Sequence record: OM386661.1
DNA: 64,000 nt
Direction: 5' to 3' (one strand)
Origin: Escherichia phage vB_EcoM_ESCO45
Numbering within the stretch: the first letter of the stretch is position 1; every line of letters begins with the position of its first letter. Below are positions 11 through 61,573 of the stretch, piece after piece. Made by a program: the position numbers and the translations under genes. The notes below the pieces were generated by a model that saw nothing but the letters and a program-made list of their open reading frames with translations, did no database searches and was not told the origin of the DNA.

Positions 11-7958
<7,948 letters not shown>

Positions 7959-11784: not shown

Positions 11785-12150
11785 ATGAAGTGGCTAGAGG
11801 AAGCTTTTAAAAACAATATTGGTGCAATTGTAGTTGGTATTTTTAGTGTTATCGGAATGTATACCACCATGCAAGTGTCAAGTGGTAAACAAGAGGTGTC
11901 TGTCAAAACAAAGTTACAACAGTTGGATAATTACACAAGTAGTAACTATTCAGCTATTCGTGATTTACAGTCTGACATGAGACTGCTTCAGTTAGGGATG
12001 GAGAACCAGAAAGTTCAGTTAGAGAATGTTAAGGGTGAAAACGCAAAACTTACCAAAACTCTTGATAAATTCTCTGACAGTGTGAATAATCTGGCTCAAT
12101 CAGTATCAGCCCTCCAAGCTATTACTGAGAAGAATACAGAAGAACACTGA
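11785..12150 (+). CDS. membrane-anchored coiled-coil protein (possible lysis/holin-related)
   Basis: 121 aa, one predicted TM segment (IGAIVVGIFSVIGMYTTMQV) then heptad-like region; strong terminator directly downstream. Confidence 0.3.
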   Translation: MKWLEEAFKNNIGAIVVGIFSVIGMYTTMQVSSGKQEVSVKTKLQQLDNYTSSNYSAIRDLQSDMRLLQLGMENQKVQLENVKGENAKLTKTLDKFSDSVNNLAQSVSALQAITEKNTEEH

Positions 12151-39333: not shown

Positions 39334-39346
39334 AAGTATATGATAA

Positions 39347-39370
39347 GAGGCTCCTACGGGAGCCTTTTTA
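39347..39370 (+). terminator. rho-independent terminator
   Basis: GGCTCC-tacg-GGAGCC followed by TTTTT. Confidence 0.6.
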
Positions 39371-42355: not shown

Positions 42356-43465
42356 ATGACTACTAAAACTAAAGCACAGATTGACGCAGAAATTTACAAA
42401 CTGGTTAAAGAGGGCAAGCTGACTAAAACAGCTATTGCACAGAAATTTAACACCTCAACCCGTTCAGTCGGTCGTGCTGTAGAGCGTCATGAAGCAACCT
42501 TAAAAGGGAATAAAAAGGCAACTTCTACACCAGCTACGAAGACTTTAAAGCAAGTTGCTAAGACCTTTAAAAAGAAAGCTGATAAGCCAGTTAAAAAGGC
42601 TGTTAAAGAGGATGTACAGAAAGCTCCGGTAAATAAACTGCATGAAGCTATGCAGAATGGCAACCAGATTGAGTACATGATTACCGGCGACTCTGTTATC
42701 ATGATTTTCGGTGCAGACTCTGAAATCGTTGAATCTACCCATCCGAACTACAAAGAAATCGTGATGGCTGTTATATCCGGTGAATATAAGAAAGCTTTCG
42801 AACTGATGAACATTCGTAAGTCTATCGAAAACTTCACTCAGGGTGCTATCACCATCAAAGGTGACAAGTTATTCTATGGTGCTGTTGAGATGCGTTCTAC
42901 TCTGGTTGACCGTATTCTTCACATGATGAAGACTGGAGATAAAGGTTTTGAACGACTTGTAATGTTCTTTGAAAAACTGATGGAAAACCCATCTAAAGAC
43001 TCTGTAGAACAACTTTGGGGCTTCGTATCCCACCTTGATGTTGAAATTGATGAAGAAGGTTACATCATTGGTTGGAAGAAAGTATCTACTCGTGAAGGTA
43101 AGCTGGTTGACTCCCGCACCTGCAAAGTACCTAATGATTTGGGTAACATTGTAGAAATGCCACGTTGGATGGTTGATAATGACCGTAACGTGACTTGCTC
43201 TCAAGGTCTTCACGTTGGTGCTTGGGATTATGTTCGTTACTTCTCAGGCGATACAATTCTGAAGGTTCGTGTCCATCCACGAGATGTTGTGTCCGTACCA
43301 ACTGATTACAACGATATGAAGATGCGTTCATCACGTTATGAAGTTGCAGCAATCGTTGATAATCAACGTAAAGTGCTGAAAGAATGGGATGGTAAGACTG
43401 AAGCTTTGCATGTCATCGTTGGCACTGCTGGTGAACTTATCTCTCAGCGTAAACGTGAAATCTAA
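42356..43465 (+). CDS. rIIB: rIIB-like protein
   Basis: 369 aa immediately after rIIA-like gene; C-terminal half resembles rIIB as recalled (GDKLFYGAVEMRS..., CSQGLHVG..., VHPRDVVSVPTDYNDMKMR); not database-verified. Confidence 0.45.
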   Translation: MTTKTKAQIDAEIYKLVKEGKLTKTAIAQKFNTSTRSVGRAVERHEATLKGNKKATSTPATKTLKQVAKTFKKKADKPVKKAVKEDVQKAPVNKLHEAMQNGNQIEYMITGDSVIMIFGADSEIVESTHPNYKEIVMAVISGEYKKAFELMNIRKSIENFTQGAITIKGDKLFYGAVEMRSTLVDRILHMMKTGDKGFERLVMFFEKLMENPSKDSVEQLWGFVSHLDVEIDEEGYIIGWKKVSTREGKLVDSRTCKVPNDLGNIVEMPRWMVDNDRNVTCSQGLHVGAWDYVRYFSGDTILKVRVHPRDVVSVPTDYNDMKMRSSRYEVAAIVDNQRKVLKEWDGKTEALHVIVGTAGELISQRKREI

Positions 43466-43565: not shown

Positions 43566-44114
43566 ATGAAGAAATTGATTCTAGGTTTGTGCTTAATGTT
43601 TATAGCACACTTATCTTATGCAGTTGACTGCCCAGAGCTATCAATTAGTCAAAAAGTAAACATGTTAAAAGCTTACCAGTATGGTGAGAATAACATGGGT
43701 AAAGGTTGGGGTATCACTCTAGCTGCTATAGCCTTACAAGAGTCAGAGTTAGGTCTGAAGGTAGAGAATAAAAAGACACACGATTATGGTATTTTCCAGA
43801 ATCACTTGAAGACTGTTGTAAAGCGTAACAAAATTAGTCCTAATGTGGCTAAAAAGAAACTTTTAAAAGACTTTAACTATGCTGCGAAGGAAACTCACAA
43901 AGAGCTTGAGTTTTGGACAAAGGTACATGGTCAGCCAAAGTCAAAGAAGACTTTACAAAAAGTTTTAGCATCTTATAATGCTGGTTATTCGTACAGAATC
44001 CCTAAAGCTAAGAAGTATTCTCAAGATGTCTATAACAATATGAGAGTTATTGCTCAATGTGAATTTGCAACAAACATTTCTAAGGTAAATCATGAAAAAA
44101 TTAAGAAAGTCTGA
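43566..44114 (+). CDS. secreted lytic transglycosylase (SLT domain) with signal peptide
   Basis: 182 aa; signal peptide MKKLILGLCLMFIAHLSYA; SLT motifs ALQESELG (catalytic Glu), YGIFQ, SYNAGYSY. Confidence 0.55.
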   Translation: MKKLILGLCLMFIAHLSYAVDCPELSISQKVNMLKAYQYGENNMGKGWGITLAAIALQESELGLKVENKKTHDYGIFQNHLKTVVKRNKISPNVAKKKLLKDFNYAAKETHKELEFWTKVHGQPKSKKTLQKVLASYNAGYSYRIPKAKKYSQDVYNNMRVIAQCEFATNISKVNHEKIKKV

Positions 44115-44787
44115 TGAAGTCTTGTGTCATGCTTATGACTTACATCCTCATGAGTTAGGTATTGATTCCTTTGCATGGACTCCAGAACAGTGCAGGGATT
44201 TTGAAGACACTGCGAGAGAAGTTGTATGTTCACTTGAAGAGTTCCACACATCAGAGCCAATTGTGAATGTTGTAGATAAAGAGACTGGACAAACTATAGG
44301 CGTAAGCCGTGATAGCTTAGTCATAGTCAATAAAGACCTTGTAGAAAAAGGGAATCTCATCTTAGCAGATATTGATGGTATTCTTACAAATTTTAATCAC
44401 GAAGATTGTTCAACGGAGTTGACTGATGGGTCATTTTCACAGTACACTAATCTTCTTGATTCTGTAAGAGCAAAACCAACGTATGTTTTCAATATCATTA
44501 ATGCAATTGCTAATCATGCTGCTGTTGGACTCTTGACAGCCAGAGGTGAATCTCAGAGAATACCTACTGAGATGTTTTTAAGGCATAACATAGAGCATGA
44601 CTACATGCTTTTTATGCGTGGTTTTGGGGCTAACTCTATAAGTGCAGAAAGTTTGAAAGTGAGGATGATTCAGTCTTGCATTCTGCCTTACTTTAATATA
44701 GTATGTTTTATAGAAGATACAGAGAAGAATGTGCAGAAGGTGAACAGAATCCTTCCACACATCAAAACCATGTTAGTTAAACATTGA
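44092..44787 (+). CDS. HAD-superfamily-like hydrolase (putative phosphatase)
   Basis: 231 aa; LILADIDGIL resembles HAD motif I (DxDG); later motifs uncertain. Confidence 0.3.
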   Translation: MKKLRKSDEVLCHAYDLHPHELGIDSFAWTPEQCRDFEDTAREVVCSLEEFHTSEPIVNVVDKETGQTIGVSRDSLVIVNKDLVEKGNLILADIDGILTNFNHEDCSTELTDGSFSQYTNLLDSVRAKPTYVFNIINAIANHAAVGLLTARGESQRIPTEMFLRHNIEHDYMLFMRGFGANSISAESLKVRMIQSCILPYFNIVCFIEDTEKNVQKVNRILPHIKTMLVKH

Positions 44788-44797
44788 GAGAAAACTT

Positions 44798-45262
44798 ATG
44801 AACAACATTATCACGGTAGCACTGGACGTTACGGCAAACAAATCTGAAGTGGTTCGTAACATTATCAAGAACAACTTTGAGGGTAAAATCTTCCGCGCTG
44901 TCAATGTAAAAGCAGACGGTAACATCCGGGAGTATCGTGCTCTCTTAAATGTTAAAAAACATGTAAAAGGTGCTGGTTCAACGACTGCACACAAAGAAAA
45001 CCTGATGACTATCTATGATATGGGTAAGGCTTCAGAGTTAGGTGCTGAAGGTATCGTTAAAGAAGGTGCTCCGTATCGCTCTTTCAATCTGGAAACTGCT
45101 CTTATGCTTTCCTTTACAAGTGGTTCTAAAACAATCACTTATCTCTTTACTGATGCTGCAACGGTATCTGCTATTAAGGATAGCACTGTCAAAGCTGGCG
45201 TAGTTGCTGCTGCAAAAGCTTCTTCGATGGCTGCAAATATCCTTGCTAAAGTCCTCGGTTAA
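44798..45262 (+). CDS. hypothetical protein
   Basis: 154 aa ORF followed by strong terminator 45273-45296. Confidence 0.4.
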   Translation: MNNIITVALDVTANKSEVVRNIIKNNFEGKIFRAVNVKADGNIREYRALLNVKKHVKGAGSTTAHKENLMTIYDMGKASELGAEGIVKEGAPYRSFNLETALMLSFTSGSKTITYLFTDAATVSAIKDSTVKAGVVAAAKASSMAANILAKVLG

Positions 45263-45272
45263 GGTTAAGATA

Positions 45273-45296
45273 CAGGCTCCTTCGGGAGCCTTTTTA
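45273..45296 (+). terminator. rho-independent terminator upstream of dam
   Basis: GGCTCC-ttcg-GGAGCC followed by TTTTT. Confidence 0.65.
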
Positions 45297-45312
45297 AATT
45301 CAAGGAGTGCTA

Positions 45313-46197
45313 ATGAAACCAATGTTTAAGTATCTTGGTGGTAAAACAAGAATACTGAAAGAATATGAGCGTTTAGGTGTCTTTCCAGACAACTGTGAAA
45401 ACTTCTATGACCTGTTTTCAGGTGGTGGCTCAGTAGCTATCTGGGCTTATGATAAGTACCCAGAGGCAAAAATATTTATTAATGAAATAAACAAACATAT
45501 CATAGAACTTTACATAACCTTCAGGGATGATTACGACAAATTCATGGAAGAATTTCGACACTTGGCAAAAAGGTACTTAGCATTACCTATGCAGGAAGAG
45601 TACACTATGAAGGGGCAACGCCATAACCGATTACGTTATAAGATGTACTACAGTGTAAGAGATGAGCTTCTCACTCTTGGTGAATCTGGTGTCTATGACT
45701 ACAGATACTATGCCAGACAGTTTTTCCTTCAGAAACTAAGTTTTGGTGGTGTATGGCAGACAACTAAAGAGATGAAAGGGCACTATGCAACACCTTGCGG
45801 CTATTTGATGGAAGAAGAAGTTTTCTTTACAAAGACTGAAGAAGCACTAAAGGAGTTCTATAACTTCATCACTGATGAGAGGGTTGTCCTTAGCAGTAAT
45901 TCTTATGATATGGTTGATATAAAGCATGGAGAAGGGACAGTCATTTACTGTGACCCACCATATATAAACACCAACCAGAAATATGGCGCAAAGTTTGACG
46001 TTTCAATGTCTGTGAAATTGTGCAAAGACATATCTGATTGGGGGGAGTTAGGCTCTAAGGTGCTGATGTCAAACTCTCAGTGGGACGGATGGTCAAACCT
46101 AATTCCTGAAAATTTTCACTTGACAGAGGTTAATCATTCATACACAATACACGCACAGGGAAGCAAAGGTATTAACGAAGTAATTATCCACAACTAA
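45313..46197 (+). CDS. dam: DNA N6-adenine methyltransferase (Dam-like)
   Basis: KYLGGK motif near N-terminus, FSGGGSV SAM-binding loop, catalytic DPPY; start at ATG 45313 with RBS AAGGAG (track start 45307 is GTG). Confidence 0.75.
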   Translation: MKPMFKYLGGKTRILKEYERLGVFPDNCENFYDLFSGGGSVAIWAYDKYPEAKIFINEINKHIIELYITFRDDYDKFMEEFRHLAKRYLALPMQEEYTMKGQRHNRLRYKMYYSVRDELLTLGESGVYDYRYYARQFFLQKLSFGGVWQTTKEMKGHYATPCGYLMEEEVFFTKTEEALKEFYNFITDERVVLSSNSYDMVDIKHGEGTVIYCDPPYINTNQKYGAKFDVSMSVKLCKDISDWGELGSKVLMSNSQWDGWSNLIPENFHLTEVNHSYTIHAQGSKGINEVIIHN

Positions 46198-46208
46198 GGT
46201 ATAAAGTT

Positions 46209-47021
46209 ATGTCAAGTAGCATCAATGTAGCACTGAACGGTAAAGTTGTTAAAATGCACACTAAGATTATCAGTGTTGAGGATTTCCTTAACGAGAGACG
46301 CTACAAAGAAAATCCTCGTCAGCGAAATACACTGAAACGTCTGAAGAGTAAGCACCTCAATGGTGCTGTATCACCAGACCAAACAGTAGTCCATGTAGCT
46401 AAGTTTGGCAGTTCACTGTTTATTATTGATGGACACTCACGCCGAGAGGCATGGAAGGTAGGCAACCTGACACGACCAGAGAACCTGATTGCAGTTATAT
46501 ACCATGTGAACTCTATATTGGATGTCACAGACTTGTATACCCATTTTGACTCTGAATTAGCAAGAGAGAAGCCTTCTGAAGTTTATTACGGGAATATGAA
46601 GATGATTTCTTTCAATCCAGAATCAGAACTGATGAAAGCATCTTGGGCTACTGCCATTAAGTATGTTGCTGCATACTATGGTGTGCAACAGGTATCTAAC
46701 ACCGAAACAGTTAAATACCTTAATGATTTTAAGAATGAGTTGGAACAAATTGATTCTCTTGAAGTACAGCTTAAAGGTGTAGTAAACGCAAAACGCAAAT
46801 ACTCTTCTGGTATCCGTGCAGCAATGCTAATAACATTACGCCTATATGGTGATGCTGCATTCTCCTTTTGGGAGGATTATAACGATTACTGTGAAGGTAT
46901 GTCTAACAAATATGTTACAGAGTTATACCAACTAGCATTACAAGCTGGTCGCGGAGCACAGGCTGATAAGCTGTTGATGAATCAAGCAATTTCACTTGTC
47001 AACTATTACAGTCAAGAGTAA
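46209..47021 (+). CDS. ParB-like nuclease domain protein
   Basis: 270 aa; FIIDGHSRREAW resembles ParB/DUF262 DGxxR catalytic loop; directly downstream of Dam gene. Confidence 0.4.
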   Translation: MSSSINVALNGKVVKMHTKIISVEDFLNERRYKENPRQRNTLKRLKSKHLNGAVSPDQTVVHVAKFGSSLFIIDGHSRREAWKVGNLTRPENLIAVIYHVNSILDVTDLYTHFDSELAREKPSEVYYGNMKMISFNPESELMKASWATAIKYVAAYYGVQQVSNTETVKYLNDFKNELEQIDSLEVQLKGVVNAKRKYSSGIRAAMLITLRLYGDAAFSFWEDYNDYCEGMSNKYVTELYQLALQAGRGAQADKLLMNQAISLVNYYSQE

Positions 47022-47040
47022 TATACAGGCTCCTTCTGGA
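47016..47040 (+). terminator. rho-independent terminator after ParB-like gene
   Basis: GGCTCC-ttct-GGAGCC followed by TTTTCC. Confidence 0.55.
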
Positions 47041-47067
47041 GCCTTTTCCATTTTAGGAGATTGTTAA

Positions 47068-47415
47068 ATGACATTTAAAGAGTTCTGTCAAGCTACTTTC
47101 ATAATTGTTTTCTTAGTTGGGGCAGGTGTCTGGGGAGGATACTCTTACAGAGACTATCAAGTTGCTGAAGCTGAGCTAAACAATGAAAAGCTCATAAGTG
47201 TTGCTAAAGATGCTTATCAGGAAGGGTTAGCCACACTGAGCACCAATTACAAAAATGATTTGAAAGATGTGCTTGCTAAGAATAAGCATACAAAAGAGGT
47301 ACTAACATATGAAAAAACTAAGCCAGAGTTTTATAATGTTTGTGTTACTGATAACTATGTCAGGGTGTTCAACGAACAAAGTGAGCAGTACATTCAAAAA
47401 CTCCCAAGTAAGTGA
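47068..47415 (+). CDS. i-spanin (inner-membrane spanin subunit)
   Basis: 115 aa type-II membrane topology: N-terminal TM (FIIVFLVGAGVWGGY) then coiled-coil periplasmic domain; o-spanin gene embedded in +1 frame at 3' end. Confidence 0.45.
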   Translation: MTFKEFCQATFIIVFLVGAGVWGGYSYRDYQVAEAELNNEKLISVAKDAYQEGLATLSTNYKNDLKDVLAKNKHTKEVLTYEKTKPEFYNVCVTDNYVRVFNEQSEQYIQKLPSK

Positions 47416-47578
47416 GAGTGATAAGTACACTCAAGAAGAATCACGGTATATCATCAAAGGTAACACAGGCAGTGATGTAGCAGCAGCACTTGAGTTCTAT
47501 CGTGACGGCTTTTACCAGTGCACAATCAAAGCTAACAACCTTATTGACATGATTTTATTAGGGAATAAGCAGCAATGA
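47309..47578 (+). CDS. o-spanin (outer-membrane lipoprotein spanin subunit)
   Basis: 89 aa; lipoprotein signal with lipobox ITMSGC; starts inside i-spanin gene in a different frame; RBS AAAGAGGT. Confidence 0.45.
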   Translation: MKKLSQSFIMFVLLITMSGCSTNKVSSTFKNSQVSESDKYTQEESRYIIKGNTGSDVAAALEFYRDGFYQCTIKANNLIDMILLGNKQQ

Positions 47579-47844
47579 CAGAGAATCAAGATACTTTCTA
47601 TGTAGAGGGTTACTTACTGTTACCACGACCAAAAGAAACTTATATGCGAATTGATTTCTCACCAACCATTATGGATAATGTGATGTGCCATATCTTTATG
47701 CAAGGTGTCACAGCACAGCTTAAGCATGTTGGTAAAGAGTGCAAAATAAAGGTTGACACTCATCCAGAAATCAAAGAAAATCACTACACATGGTTCTTAC
47801 CAGACTCTAAAGAAATCTTAGCAGTTCTTAAAACGAGGAAGTAA
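47575..47844 (+). CDS. hypothetical protein
   Basis: 89 aa ORF, ATGA overlap with upstream gene. Confidence 0.35.
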   Translation: MTENQDTFYVEGYLLLPRPKETYMRIDFSPTIMDNVMCHIFMQGVTAQLKHVGKECKIKVDTHPEIKENHYTWFLPDSKEILAVLKTRK

Positions 47845-47846
47845 CT

Positions 47847-48170
47847 ATGCAGATTAATGGAAGAGACTTTGTAGCCGTTTACTACGAGAAAGATAAAGAG
47901 GTTGGTGTAGCACAAGTAACTTATGGCAATGGTAAGTGGCTATATGGGACAATTGCAGTAGTCGGAACAAGAAGTGATACAAAAACCTTTAAAGATTGTG
48001 TTGACCTTCTTGAAGAATCCATCAAGAATCATTGGTGTCTGATATGGATGACTGCCAACGAAGTGATAGAACGTTTCAAAAAGATTGATATCAACATTGA
48101 CAGCATTGAGCATGTTGATTTATATGAACTAACCGAAAAGGTAAGCTATGAAAGCTCTAGAGGTAATTGA
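47847..48170 (+). CDS. hypothetical protein
   Basis: 107 aa ORF. Confidence 0.35.
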   Translation: MQINGRDFVAVYYEKDKEVGVAQVTYGNGKWLYGTIAVVGTRSDTKTFKDCVDLLEESIKNHWCLIWMTANEVIERFKKIDINIDSIEHVDLYELTEKVSYESSRGN

Positions 48171-48375
48171 TAAAGACACTGGAGAAGTCACGTCAGCATG
48201 TGTTTTCGTGAGTCACGACACAGTGATACCCTTTTACAGCCTTGACAGTTTTAGTTTTACAGGGACAACTCCAGAGGAATACTTTGAAGACCTCACCTTT
48301 GCCAGAATCTCTATAGACACATTCTATAAATGCTTCTATGATGAAGGTAAAGAGTTACGAGAAACCGAACTATAA
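48148..48375 (+). CDS. hypothetical protein
   Basis: 75 aa ORF. Confidence 0.3.
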   Translation: MKALEVIDKDTGEVTSACVFVSHDTVIPFYSLDSFSFTGTTPEEYFEDLTFARISIDTFYKCFYDEGKELRETEL

Positions 48376-48387
48376 GGTGTATATTAT

Positions 48388-48588
48388 ATGGCTGACTTCT
48401 GCAAAGACTGTTCTATCGAAATGTTTGGACGTGATACAGGTGACTTAAAAGGTCTTATCACTGAAGATGACTTTAAAGCTGGTTATGCAATGCCAGTAAT
48501 CTGTGAAGGCTGTGGGTGCATCTGGGTAGACCACGAAGGGCAACGTGTAAAGCCTTCAGAAGATAAAGAATCTTGGGAGAGGTGTTAA
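48388..48588 (+). CDS. small zinc-ribbon protein
   Basis: 66 aa; CKDC ... CEGCGC pairs. Confidence 0.35.
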   Translation: MADFCKDCSIEMFGRDTGDLKGLITEDDFKAGYAMPVICEGCGCIWVDHEGQRVKPSEDKESWERC

Positions 48589-49374
48589 ATGGGTATTGTA
48601 AAAATCATCAATGGTGATATCTTTGACGCCTTTGATAAAGGTAAGTTTGACATCATTGGTCACGGTTGCAACTGTATGAATTTAATGGGTGCAGGTATCG
48701 CTGACAAGATTTCTAAACTTTACCCAAAAGCATATGAGACCGATACAGAAGTTTACATCTATGCAGGTGGTACAGGTCACAAACCCTGTGAAAATTTACT
48801 GGGTAATTTCTCTGTAGCACGTTTAAAACAAGGTCGTATAGCTAACCTTTACACTCAGCTTAAGACTGGTAAAGACGCCCGATACAGTGCTTTAGAGTCA
48901 TCTTTGAAGCAACTTAACAGATACTGTGAAGTTAACCAGTTGAAGAAAGTTGGTTTACCTATGATTGGTGCAGGTATCGGTGGACTTGACCCTCAAGCTG
49001 TCACAGTTATCATCAATCAGGTTATGAAGAGCGTAGATGTTTATCTGTATGTCTACGAGACAGAGATGTGCAACAAGTTACACTCAGGTTGGAAAAACTA
49101 CTGTGAACCAGAATACTTTGCAGGTGTAGTTGTGTCCACAGATAATGCAGTTACCCTCTTCAGACGAAGAAAAGGTAAGATACATCAAAGTAACCCTCCG
49201 GTTGAAAAGATGTCTCTAAGTAACGCTCTAGTTACCCACCTGTCGAAGAGCAATCACAGAATTGCTGTGACATTTGGTAGTGATGCCGATGCTTACATTT
49301 ATGCAAGAACTGATGAGGATATCAAGACGGTTTTCTCTTCACCAGAAGTTACCTTCTTAGACGCAAAGAGCTAA
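48589..49374 (+). CDS. macro-domain-like (ADP-ribose binding/processing) protein
   Basis: 261 aa; N-terminal INGDIFDA...DIIGHGCNCMNLMGAGIADKI resembles macro-domain Gly-rich ADP-ribose binding loop; C-terminal ~100 aa extension of unknown function. Confidence 0.45.
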   Translation: MGIVKIINGDIFDAFDKGKFDIIGHGCNCMNLMGAGIADKISKLYPKAYETDTEVYIYAGGTGHKPCENLLGNFSVARLKQGRIANLYTQLKTGKDARYSALESSLKQLNRYCEVNQLKKVGLPMIGAGIGGLDPQAVTVIINQVMKSVDVYLYVYETEMCNKLHSGWKNYCEPEYFAGVVVSTDNAVTLFRRRKGKIHQSNPPVEKMSLSNALVTHLSKSNHRIAVTFGSDADAYIYARTDEDIKTVFSSPEVTFLDAKS

Positions 49375-49443
49375 GAAACTCTGTAGAATATTCACAATAG
49401 ACTAAGCCTTTCTTATCTGGTAAATTTTTCAGGTAAGGGGGCT

Positions 49444-49625
49444 TTTTCATTTCAGAATTGTGCAGGCATATTTCTATAGAGAAACCTGTAGAGAAAATCT
49501 TGAACTCCAAAGAGAAAATTCATTTTCAAACTGTGCAGGTAATCTCCAAAGAGCTTTTTCATTTTCAAAACGTGCAGAGAAAAATCAGGTCGGGCAAGAA
49601 AAATCATTTTAGAATTGTGCAGGTA
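49444..49625. repeat. iteron-like direct repeat array (4 copies of ~20-bp unit TTCATTTTCARAAYTGTGCAGG)
   Basis: Copies at ~49446, 49519, 49558, 49604; copies 2 and 3 are parts of a 39-bp tandem duplication beginning CTCCAAAGAG (49505-49543 / 49544-49582). Confidence 0.6.
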
Positions 49626-49801
49626 GGCGGGTCTAGGCGGGGATGTCGCCATTTCTCACAATGCTACCACATCCAAAAAGAAAAGTCAACAGAAAAATTT
49701 GTAGCGGATTGAAAAATAATTCTTGACTATAGTTCTGTTTTGTGGTATTCGCGTGCGCCCGTTTCATTACATTTTTGCCAAAAATATTTTTAAAATTTTT
49801 A

Positions 49802-61075: not shown

Positions 61076-61098
61076 ATAAAAAGGCTCCCGAAGGAGCC
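61076..61098 (-). terminator. rho-independent terminator (minus strand) after endolysin gene
   Basis: GGCTCC-ttcg-GGAGCC on minus strand followed by TTTTATTTT. Confidence 0.55.
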
Positions 61099-61108
61099 TA
61101 TGAAGATA

Positions 61109-61573
61109 TTACTTTGGGTATACACTGTCAAGATAAATGTCAGCTTCCATTCTACGTCTGTTTTTCAGTCCGTTTGAAGTGACCTTCTTACCTTTGACTG
61201 TAACCTTGTTCCACCACTGCATAGCTTCTGCACAACCGACCTTATTACCAGCATTGTGGCGCTTGATAAACGTAGAGTCCTGCATAGCCGTGATACCAAT
61301 GTTGTATGTTTCACTTACAAGTGCGTCAAACTCATTCTGAGAAGTTGGAACCTTGATGGCTTTGTTAACTGCTGCAACGAACTTTTCAACATCTTCGAGA
61401 AGATACTGTTCAGCTTGTCCAGCGGTAATCTTCATACCCATCTTAACAGGTTTGCCAGAAATACGGATTGTTCCGTACCCAATTGTGGGGATTCCAGCAG
61501 AATCTTCGTAAGCCTCTAGCTTAAGACCTTCAAAGAACTTAATAGCTTCTAAGCCTTTTCTTGAGAGTTGCAT
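61109..61573 (-). CDS. endolysin, T4-lysozyme-like muramidase (GH24)
   Basis: 154 aa; FEGLKLEAYEDSAGIPTIGYG matches GH24 lysozyme catalytic region; minus-strand terminator at 61076-61098. Confidence 0.75.
   Translation of the reverse strand: MQLSRKGLEAIKFFEGLKLEAYEDSAGIPTIGYGTIRISGKPVKMGMKITAGQAEQYLLEDVEKFVAAVNKAIKVPTSQNEFDALVSETYNIGITAMQDSTFIKRHNAGNKVGCAEAMQWWNKVTVKGKKVTSNGLKNRRRMEADIYLDSVYPK

Follow-up and report, generated by a model that had tools for sequence, protein, structure and literature searches.

Two overlapping genes at 47068–47578 of the window, by which we mean the whole 64-kb stretch of DNA analysed here, are very probably the two-component spanin genes of a Felix O1-like myovirus. 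A lysis function is what we infer for the pair from its architecture and from the classification of its family. Judged after Summer et al. (2007) and Kongari et al. (2018), from whom the class criteria were taken, the designation "two-component spanin, overlapped architecture" is supported by the sequence-level criteria bar the coiled coil. In a literature search, no protein of the Felix O1-type spanin sequence family was found to have been tested experimentally. The features of the region and its surroundings are given in Table 1.

Table 1. Positions of the putative spanin genes, their signals and the neighbouring genes in the window.
Feature	Position	Strand	Basis or remark
rIIA			upstream of rIIB
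rIIB	42356..43465		
Secreted SLT-like protein (T4 vs.1-like)	43566..44114		
Polynucleotide kinase	44092..44787		
ORF154	44798..45262		
Dam methyltransferase	45307..46197		
ORF270	46209..47021		
Terminator-like hairpin, AGGCTCC-TTCT-GGAGCCT with T-rich tail	47027..47044	+	directly upstream of i-spanin ribosome-binding site
i-spanin Shine-Dalgarno, AGGAG	47055..47059	+	8 nt before ATG
i-spanin/o-spanin pair (putative)	47068..47578		
i-spanin gene, 115 aa	47068..47415	+	phrog_1152; 97% identity to Felix O1 ORF20
i-spanin transmembrane helix (predicted), aa 6-24, FCQATFIIVFLVGAGVWGG	47083..47139	+	Kyte-Doolittle
o-spanin Shine-Dalgarno, AAGAGG, within i-spanin gene	47294..47299	+	9 nt before ATG; conserved in 29/29 relatives
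o-spanin gene, 89-aa precursor, 70-aa predicted mature lipoprotein	47309..47578	+	phrog_4180; Felix O1 ORF21; conservation
o-spanin lipoprotein signal peptide (predicted), ending in lipobox M-S-G-C	47309..47368	+	PROSITE-type rule; conservation
Dual-coding overlap, 107 nt	47309..47415	+	i-spanin aa 81-115 / o-spanin aa 1-36
i-spanin Cys92 codon	47341..47343	+	sole periplasmic cysteine; invariant in relatives and distant homologues
o-spanin Cys20 (lipobox) codon	47366..47368	+	
o-spanin Cys71 codon	47519..47521	+	invariant in relatives and distant homologues
Four small ORFs	47575..48588		
Macro-domain protein	48589..49374		
Endolysin, 154 aa, phage lysozyme family	61109..61573	-	PF00959 E 1e-40; phrog_7 endolysin 9e-57

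The window is from a Felixounavirus, and the region of the two genes matches 257 phage records, mostly at 90–99% identity, nearly all of which are Felixounavirus or other Ounavirinae. The i-spanin matched phrog_1152, "Rz-like spanin" (E 9e-42), and was present by tblastn in 402 phage records. The best PHROG for the o-spanin was phrog_4180 (E 2e-50), which has no assigned function, and a weak match was obtained to phrog_456, "Rz-like spanin" (E 3e-4). The two products were 97% and 98.9% identical to ORF20 and ORF21 of Felix O1, respectively. Felix01, FO1a, UAB_phi87, WV8, Moogle and Mushroom have been placed in the "JH2" families of overlapped i- and o-spanins, and the JH2 i-spanin family also contains phiEco32-type phages (Kongari et al., 2018; PMC6139136). 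Citrobacter phage Moogle was annotated by spanin specialists; in its curated record at GenBank, an i-spanin gene of 348 nt and an o-spanin gene of 270 nt, both provided with a ribosome-binding site of their own, overlap by 107 nt, and their products are 77% and 81% identical to the i- and o-spanin of the window. By sequence, the pair belongs to the Felix O1/JH2 spanin family, and the spanin-pair interpretation given in the preliminary description is supported by phrog_1152, the identity to the Felix O1 proteins, the JH2 listing and the Moogle annotation. The Moogle paper (PMC4319497) describes this gene geometry and also the scattered lysis genes of Felix O1-like phages. Therefore, the literature and curated records already cover the pair and its overlapped architecture, as well as the scattering of the lysis genes, including the remark on location. 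When both proteins were scanned against Pfam, no family reached the threshold and the sole matches were unrelated (E 0.03 or worse), so neither protein matched the Pfam Rz/Rz1 models; in the NCBIfam scan of both, all matches were between signal peptides of lipoproteins and stayed below threshold.

The i-spanin begins with MTFKEFCQATFIIVFLVGAGVWGG, and its hydropathy peak, at aa 6–24, has a mean of 1.75 on the 19-residue Kyte-Doolittle scale and of 2.9 in an 11-residue core, in agreement with the N-terminal transmembrane helix that had been proposed. The charges flanking this stretch are consistent with an N-in orientation, and the ~91 residues beyond the anchor are polar. The sequence shows a single N-terminal membrane anchor, and we infer type II topology, with a predicted periplasmic part of ~91 aa. 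The conserved C-terminal motif of the protein reads EK-T..F.N.C...Y...FN. The coiled-coil periplasmic domain of the preliminary description was not demonstrated: the score observed in a crude, home-made heptad a/d test was reached by 1467 of 2000 shuffles, and the AlphaFold2 model (pLDDT 51) has helices at aa 27–71, followed by mixed strands and a short helix at the C-terminus. The two AlphaFold2 models, both single-sequence (pLDDT 51 and 71), were read for rough secondary structure only, because their confidence is low to moderate and the o-spanin model puts the signal peptide, which would be cleaved, into a sheet.

The o-spanin gene is in the +1 frame relative to the i-spanin gene, and its ATG at 47309 is the first possible start, with an in-frame TAA two codons upstream. 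The N-terminus of the product, MKKLSQSFIMFVLLITMSGC, is followed by STNK and satisfies the PROSITE-type lipoprotein rule, with Cys20 as the lipidation site and Ser at +2; the signal peptide has a basic n-region and a hydrophobic core ahead of the lipobox M-S-G-C. The start, the different frame, the separate ribosome-binding site, the lipobox and the end past the i-spanin stop had all been correctly described; the ribosome-binding site is AAGAGG, 9 nt upstream of the ATG, the lipobox cysteine is Cys20 and the extension past the i-spanin stop is 163 nt. Of the o-spanin ORF, 60% is outside any other ORF. Its stop overlaps the start of the next ORF (ATGA). Apart from Cys20, the mature o-spanin has Cys71 as its only cysteine. 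According to the Lol rule, the +2 residue governs outer-membrane sorting, and Asp at +2 marks a lipoprotein not destined for the outer membrane; the Ser at +2 of the o-spanin predicts outer-membrane sorting. When the candidate starts of all ORFs of at least 40 aa in the six frames of the whole window were scanned, 3 of 1267 passed the lipobox rule, and of these three, 47309 alone combines an ATG with a Shine-Dalgarno sequence and an adjoining membrane-protein gene. The other two, at 61561 (+ strand; TTG start) and 49767 (- strand; short orphan ORF of 44 aa), have no partner gene and were judged to be chance matches. No further credible candidate for a lipoprotein or a spanin came to light within the 64-kb window of the ~88-kb genome.

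The paired, overlapping architecture is kept in three other phage groups, represented by Erwinia phage phiEa21-4 (Kolesnikvirus; overlap of 137 nt; o-spanin N-terminus MKRLFSLCFLTSVLVMTTASC), phiEco32 (Kuravirus; 116 nt; MRKLNQFFIMSALVMSMSAC) and Salmonella phage Solent (Sashavirus; 164 nt), in which the o-spanin is annotated. The deposited annotation of phiEco32 truncates the lipoprotein ORF. The lipobox is conserved in four distant o-spanin homologues, and alignments of five i-spanins and of five o-spanins left E82, K83, F88, N90, C92, Y97 and N102 of the i-spanin and C20, G54, D66, C71, N76 and L78 of the o-spanin invariant. Most two-component spanins carry periplasmic cysteines (~96% of the catalogued pairs; PMC6139136), with which the presence of one in each subunit here agrees. 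The Solent homologues have 27% identity to the i-spanin (pairwise E 8e-9) and 33% to the o-spanin (E 2e-12), with the C-terminal motifs and cysteines as well as the overlapped architecture conserved, and their genes belong to a canonical lysis cassette, in which they come immediately behind those for endolysin and holin/antiholin. The cassette location, the longer overlap and a second periplasmic cysteine in the Solent o-spanin distinguish them from the pair in the window. Among the lines of evidence considered here, the Solent cassette is the best contextual evidence that the family would act in lysis.

In the window, the pair is placed in a rIIA-rIIB-pnk-dam cluster. The preliminary description had located it far from the endolysin and holin candidates, which holds for the endolysin gene, 13.5 kb away on the opposite (minus) strand. 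The holin part has a weaker footing: the sole "holin" candidate (11785..12150) is putative, takes its name from another record's annotation, has one N-terminal hydrophobic stretch and matches phrog_4038, which has no assigned function. Since a terminator-like hairpin stands directly upstream, the spanin genes are presumably transcribed by read-through or from an unrecognised promoter. The hairpin motif is present in four copies in the window, and its equivalent also precedes ORF20 in the alignment with Felix O1. Only weak consensus matches were obtained in a promoter scan (18 versus 11.3 ± 3.2 expected), and none was assigned to the spanin pair.

The position of the two genes among rIIA, rIIB, pnk, dam and macro-domain genes, away from the endolysin gene, would also suit an inner-membrane protein and an outer-membrane lipoprotein that are expressed together with the surrounding early genes and play a role other than lysis, for example in superinfection exclusion or in the masking of receptors, as with lipoproteins of the T5 Llp or Cor type, and the lack of an assigned function for phrog_4180, the best PHROG of the lipoprotein, points the same way. 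We consider such a role very unlikely, as the genes for a type II membrane protein and a lipoprotein are strictly paired and overlapping across four phage groups and the homologues of both subunits lie in the endolysin-holin-spanin cassette of Solent. To our knowledge, exclusion lipoproteins need no co-conserved inner-membrane partner, which also counts against this role. Moreover, distance from the other lysis genes is shared by the proven spanins of T4, whose genes pseT.3/pseT.2 adjoin pseT, far from t (holin) and e (endolysin) (PMC6139136).

Further support for a spanin pair encoded in two overlapping frames was obtained from 29 related IMG/VR viral contigs with 76–99% DNA identity across the pair. 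The o-spanin ATG, the sequence AAAGAGG, the lipobox Cys, both ORF lengths, the 107-nt overlap, i-Cys92 and o-Cys71 are kept in 29/29 of these relatives; within the lipobox, Cys, Gly at -1 and Ser at -2 are invariant, and position -3 is Met or Ile. Variable sites were counted by codon position in 28 distinct sequences. The counts for positions 1, 2 and 3 were 22/81, 14/80 and 59/80 in the segment coding for the i-spanin only, and 15/53, 8/53 and 46/54 in that coding for the o-spanin only, each in its own frame, compared with 9/34, 7/35 and 10/35 in the overlap read in the i-spanin frame; read in the o-spanin frame, 9/34 third positions of the overlap were variable. The pattern is of the normal coding type outside the overlap and flat inside it, with third-position variability of 74–85% in the single-coding parts versus 26–29% in the overlap (Fisher p = 9e-6 in the i-spanin frame and 5e-8 in the o-spanin frame). 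Third-position variability is suppressed in the overlap, and therefore both frames are under protein-coding constraint there. The most conserved motif of the i-spanin is encoded within these 107 nt, by the same DNA as the o-spanin signal peptide.

The public annotation of Felixounavirus o-spanins is inconsistent, the protein being called "hypothetical", truncated with loss of signal peptide and lipobox, or reported "missing", as for phage vB_Si_DR094 (PMC8300805). The records of tootiki and ESCO56 use the equivalent of the ATG at 47357, which encodes the Met at -3 of the lipobox, and that of HMD-P8 uses the equivalent of the GTG at 47381; either start would give a short soluble product lacking a signal peptide, and a smaller overlap. 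These precedents notwithstanding, a later start is extremely unlikely. No Shine-Dalgarno sequence was present at 47357 or 47381, whereas AAGAGG precedes 47309 in 29/29 relatives, and Met17 is replaced by Ile in two of them (L019 and L027). In relatives with as little as 76% DNA identity, as well as in the distant homologues, the 36 N-terminal codons still specify the hydrophobic core, the basic n-region and the S-G-C lipobox; third-position suppression spans all 107 nt of the overlap, and the long form is used in the curated Moogle and Solent records. Such mis-annotation of o-spanins was called common by Kongari et al. (PMC6139136). The 89-aa form of the o-spanin from 47309, which corresponds to the start of Felix O1 ORF21 and Moogle gp121, is supported by this comparative evidence. 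ORF length alone is no evidence for the o-spanin, because long alternative-frame ORFs are common in the A+T-rich window, which holds 14 of at least 89 aa lying mostly within longer ORFs; nevertheless, the idea that the +1-frame ORF arose by chance and is not expressed is refuted by the conservation pattern, namely the normal codon-position pattern of the o-spanin-only segment, together with the ORF intact in 342 phage records by tblastn and the match to phrog_4180, and it deserves practically no credence.

The preliminary description called the o-spanin gene "embedded" in its title and "overlapped" in its text, and only the second term stands. Since the o-spanin gene passes the i-spanin stop, the class is "overlapped", for which the paradigm is P2 lysB/lysC and not lambda Rz/Rz1, the paradigm of the embedded class (PMC6139136). 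As in P2 LysB/LysC, the o-spanin gene begins in a different frame within the 3' part of the i-spanin gene and ends beyond the i-spanin stop. The P2 lysB/lysC genes sit in a lysis cassette, and the pair in the window differs in being 13.5 kb from the endolysin gene. By the listing of Kongari et al. (PMC6139136), the P2 proteins also fall into sequence families other than JH2. With lambda Rz/Rz1, the pair shares the predicted topology and the inferred mechanism, that is, a type II inner-membrane protein and an outer-membrane lipoprotein forming periplasm-spanning complexes, and periplasmic cysteines are found in both systems; in contrast, Rz1 is wholly embedded in Rz, and the window genes only overlap. 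Lambda Rz1 has 40 aa and is proline-rich; the mature o-spanin of the window has 70 aa and no proline.

The spanins of T4, PseT.3/PseT.2, which were shown to be functional by their ability to complement lambda Rz/Rz1 amber mutants (PMC6139136), are similar to the window proteins in size (117 and 99 aa in T4, 115 and 89 aa in the window). A polynucleotide kinase gene is near the spanin genes in both phages, upstream of them in the window and downstream in T4, and the separation of the T4 spanin genes from those of endolysin and holin parallels the scattered lysis genes of Felix O1-type phages. However, BLASTP against PseT.3 and PseT.2 detected no similarity (E 17 and 0.04, the latter from the signal peptide only), and the PHROGs differ, being 739 and 812 in T4 and 1152 and 4180 in the window. 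The T4 spanin genes have no more than 4 nt in common, which puts them in the "separated" class, compared with the 107-nt overlap here, and the T4 proteins have 0 and 2 periplasmic cysteines instead of 1 and 1 (PMC6139136). The closest likeness is to Felix O1 and Moogle: the genes are of 348 and 270 nt with a 107-nt overlap in the +1 frame, as in the Moogle record, and the pair is downstream of rIIA, rIIB and pnk in Felix O1 as well. The window differs from Felix O1 in a 1.75-kb cassette of dam and ORF270, inserted between the i-spanin gene and its upstream neighbour, which Felix O1 does not have.

Weighing against the spanin reading are the lack of detectable similarity to the experimentally studied T4 spanins and of any Pfam match, the undemonstrated coiled coil, the proline-free mature o-spanin and the terminator-like hairpin upstream. 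By analogy with lambda Rz/Rz1 and T4 PseT.3/PseT.2, the i-spanin would be an inner-membrane protein whose C-terminal domain extends into the periplasm, and the o-spanin would be lipidated on Cys20, cut by signal peptidase II and carried by the Lol system to the outer membrane, into its inner leaflet. The two would bind each other via the C-terminal regions of their periplasmic domains, and the resulting complexes, stabilised by disulfides, would cross the periplasm through the meshes of the peptidoglycan. They would be inactive until the endolysin, released by the holin, degrades the peptidoglycan; the complexes would then collapse, bring about fusion of the inner with the outer membrane and so remove the last barrier to phage release. 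Lambda Rz/Rz1 and T4 PseT.3/PseT.2 complement each other functionally (PMC6139136).

The conserved C-terminal motifs that hold i-Cys92 and o-Cys71 probably form the interface between the i- and o-spanin. Homotypic disulfides have been shown for the lambda and T4 spanins. With a single invariant periplasmic cysteine per subunit, located inside the conserved C-terminal motif, the Felix O1-type family might instead be locked by a heterotypic i-o disulfide, which we consider unlikely. The coincidence of the i-spanin motif and the o-spanin signal peptide in the same DNA is a second unusual point, and the data do not require functional importance of either.

Because spanins would be harmless until the cell wall is degraded, there is no need for their genes to be part of a lysis cassette, and being inert until then, they may be placed among early or middle genes, as in T4. 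Through the overlap, coding space of ~107 nt is saved and the partner genes stay linked to each other. The value of the finding is mainly for annotation, and little for discovery. Felix O1-like phages are used in Salmonella and E. coli biocontrol, and therefore a correct inventory of their lysis genes has some applied use.

The deposited o-spanin coding sequences of phages phiEco32, tootiki, ESCO56 and HMD-P8 are truncated at the 5' end. Their annotated starts fall at the Met within the lipobox, past the lipobox Cys or, as in phi32_38 of phiEco32, far later, and these o-spanins were therefore annotated without a signal peptide. One Felixounavirus is said to have no o-spanin (PMC8300805), and this reported absence may reflect the same 5'-truncation artefact of annotation.

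Regarding other candidate lysis functions, the 121-aa putative holin has a single, N-terminal hydrophobic stretch. Because this ORF belongs to phrog_4038, a PHROG without a function label, and had no above-threshold match in Pfam, the holin of Felix O1-like phages still looks unassigned on this evidence. The 182-aa protein encoded downstream of rIIB has a hydrophobic N-terminus that resembles a signal peptide, as judged by eye, and a below-threshold match to the SLT transglycosylase family (PF01464, E 1e-3), and it may represent a second, secreted muralytic activity. At its 3' end the gene shares 23 nt with the polynucleotide kinase gene, and the counterpart of the protein in Felix O1, ORF10, is annotated as similar to a protein of the T4 vs-regB intergenic region.

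Features of the window and of related phages discussed in the text
Feature	Genome	Position	Strand	Remark
o-spanin entry	phiEco32 (L039)	879..1139		deposited CDS phi32_38, 58 aa, starts much later still
o-spanin CDS	tootiki (L001)	2852..3067		5'-truncated
o-spanin CDS	ESCO56 (L002)	1142..1363		5'-truncated
o-spanin CDS	HMD-P8 (L003)	47374..47571		5'-truncated
121-aa ORF, putative holin	window	11785..12150	+	labelled 'holin' in HMD-P8 record
182-aa protein gene	window	43566..44114	+	directly after rIIB
Macro-domain ('phosphatase'/Appr-1-p processing) gene	window	48589..49374
Macro-domain gene	phiEa21-4 (L038)	984..1670
Macro-domain gene	phiEco32 (L039)	1139..1579
dam methyltransferase gene	window	45307..46197
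270-aa ORF	window	46209..47021		phrog_2615; contains 'IIDGHSRREAW' motif
Hairpin copy	window	39346..39368	+	motif match
Hairpin copy	window	45272..45294	+	motif match
Hairpin copy	window	47025..47047	+	motif match
Hairpin copy	window	61079..61101	-	motif match; just 3' of endolysin gene

The linkage of the spanin pair to a macro-domain gene is common to different phage groups: the macro-domain gene comes immediately after the pair in phiEa21-4 and phiEco32, and in the window it comes after the pair with four small ORFs in between. In the gap of about 500 nt after the macro-domain gene of the window, a 25-34-nt motif with GTGCAG at its end is repeated (49441..49704; repeat families D1/D2). Its four to five copies are spaced 39-112 nt apart and might serve as promoter or regulatory repeats in front of the next cluster of small ORFs.

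The window contains four copies of a hairpin motif, GGCTCC-TTCG/TTCT/TACG-GGAGCC with TTTT after it, where chance predicts zero, and this motif is probably the standard intrinsic terminator of the phage. Upstream of the spanin pair, this terminator-like hairpin is contained in a 37-nt direct repeat (45258-45294 and 47011-47047, copies 86% identical) flanking a 1.75-kb cassette that consists of the dam methyltransferase gene and the 270-aa ORF (45258..47047 with both repeat copies). Felix O1 has a single copy of the repeat at the same site and lacks the cassette; in ESCO56, dam is present and the 270-aa ORF is missing. The arrangement looks like the product of recombination between repeated regulatory hairpins, through which modules are gained or lost.
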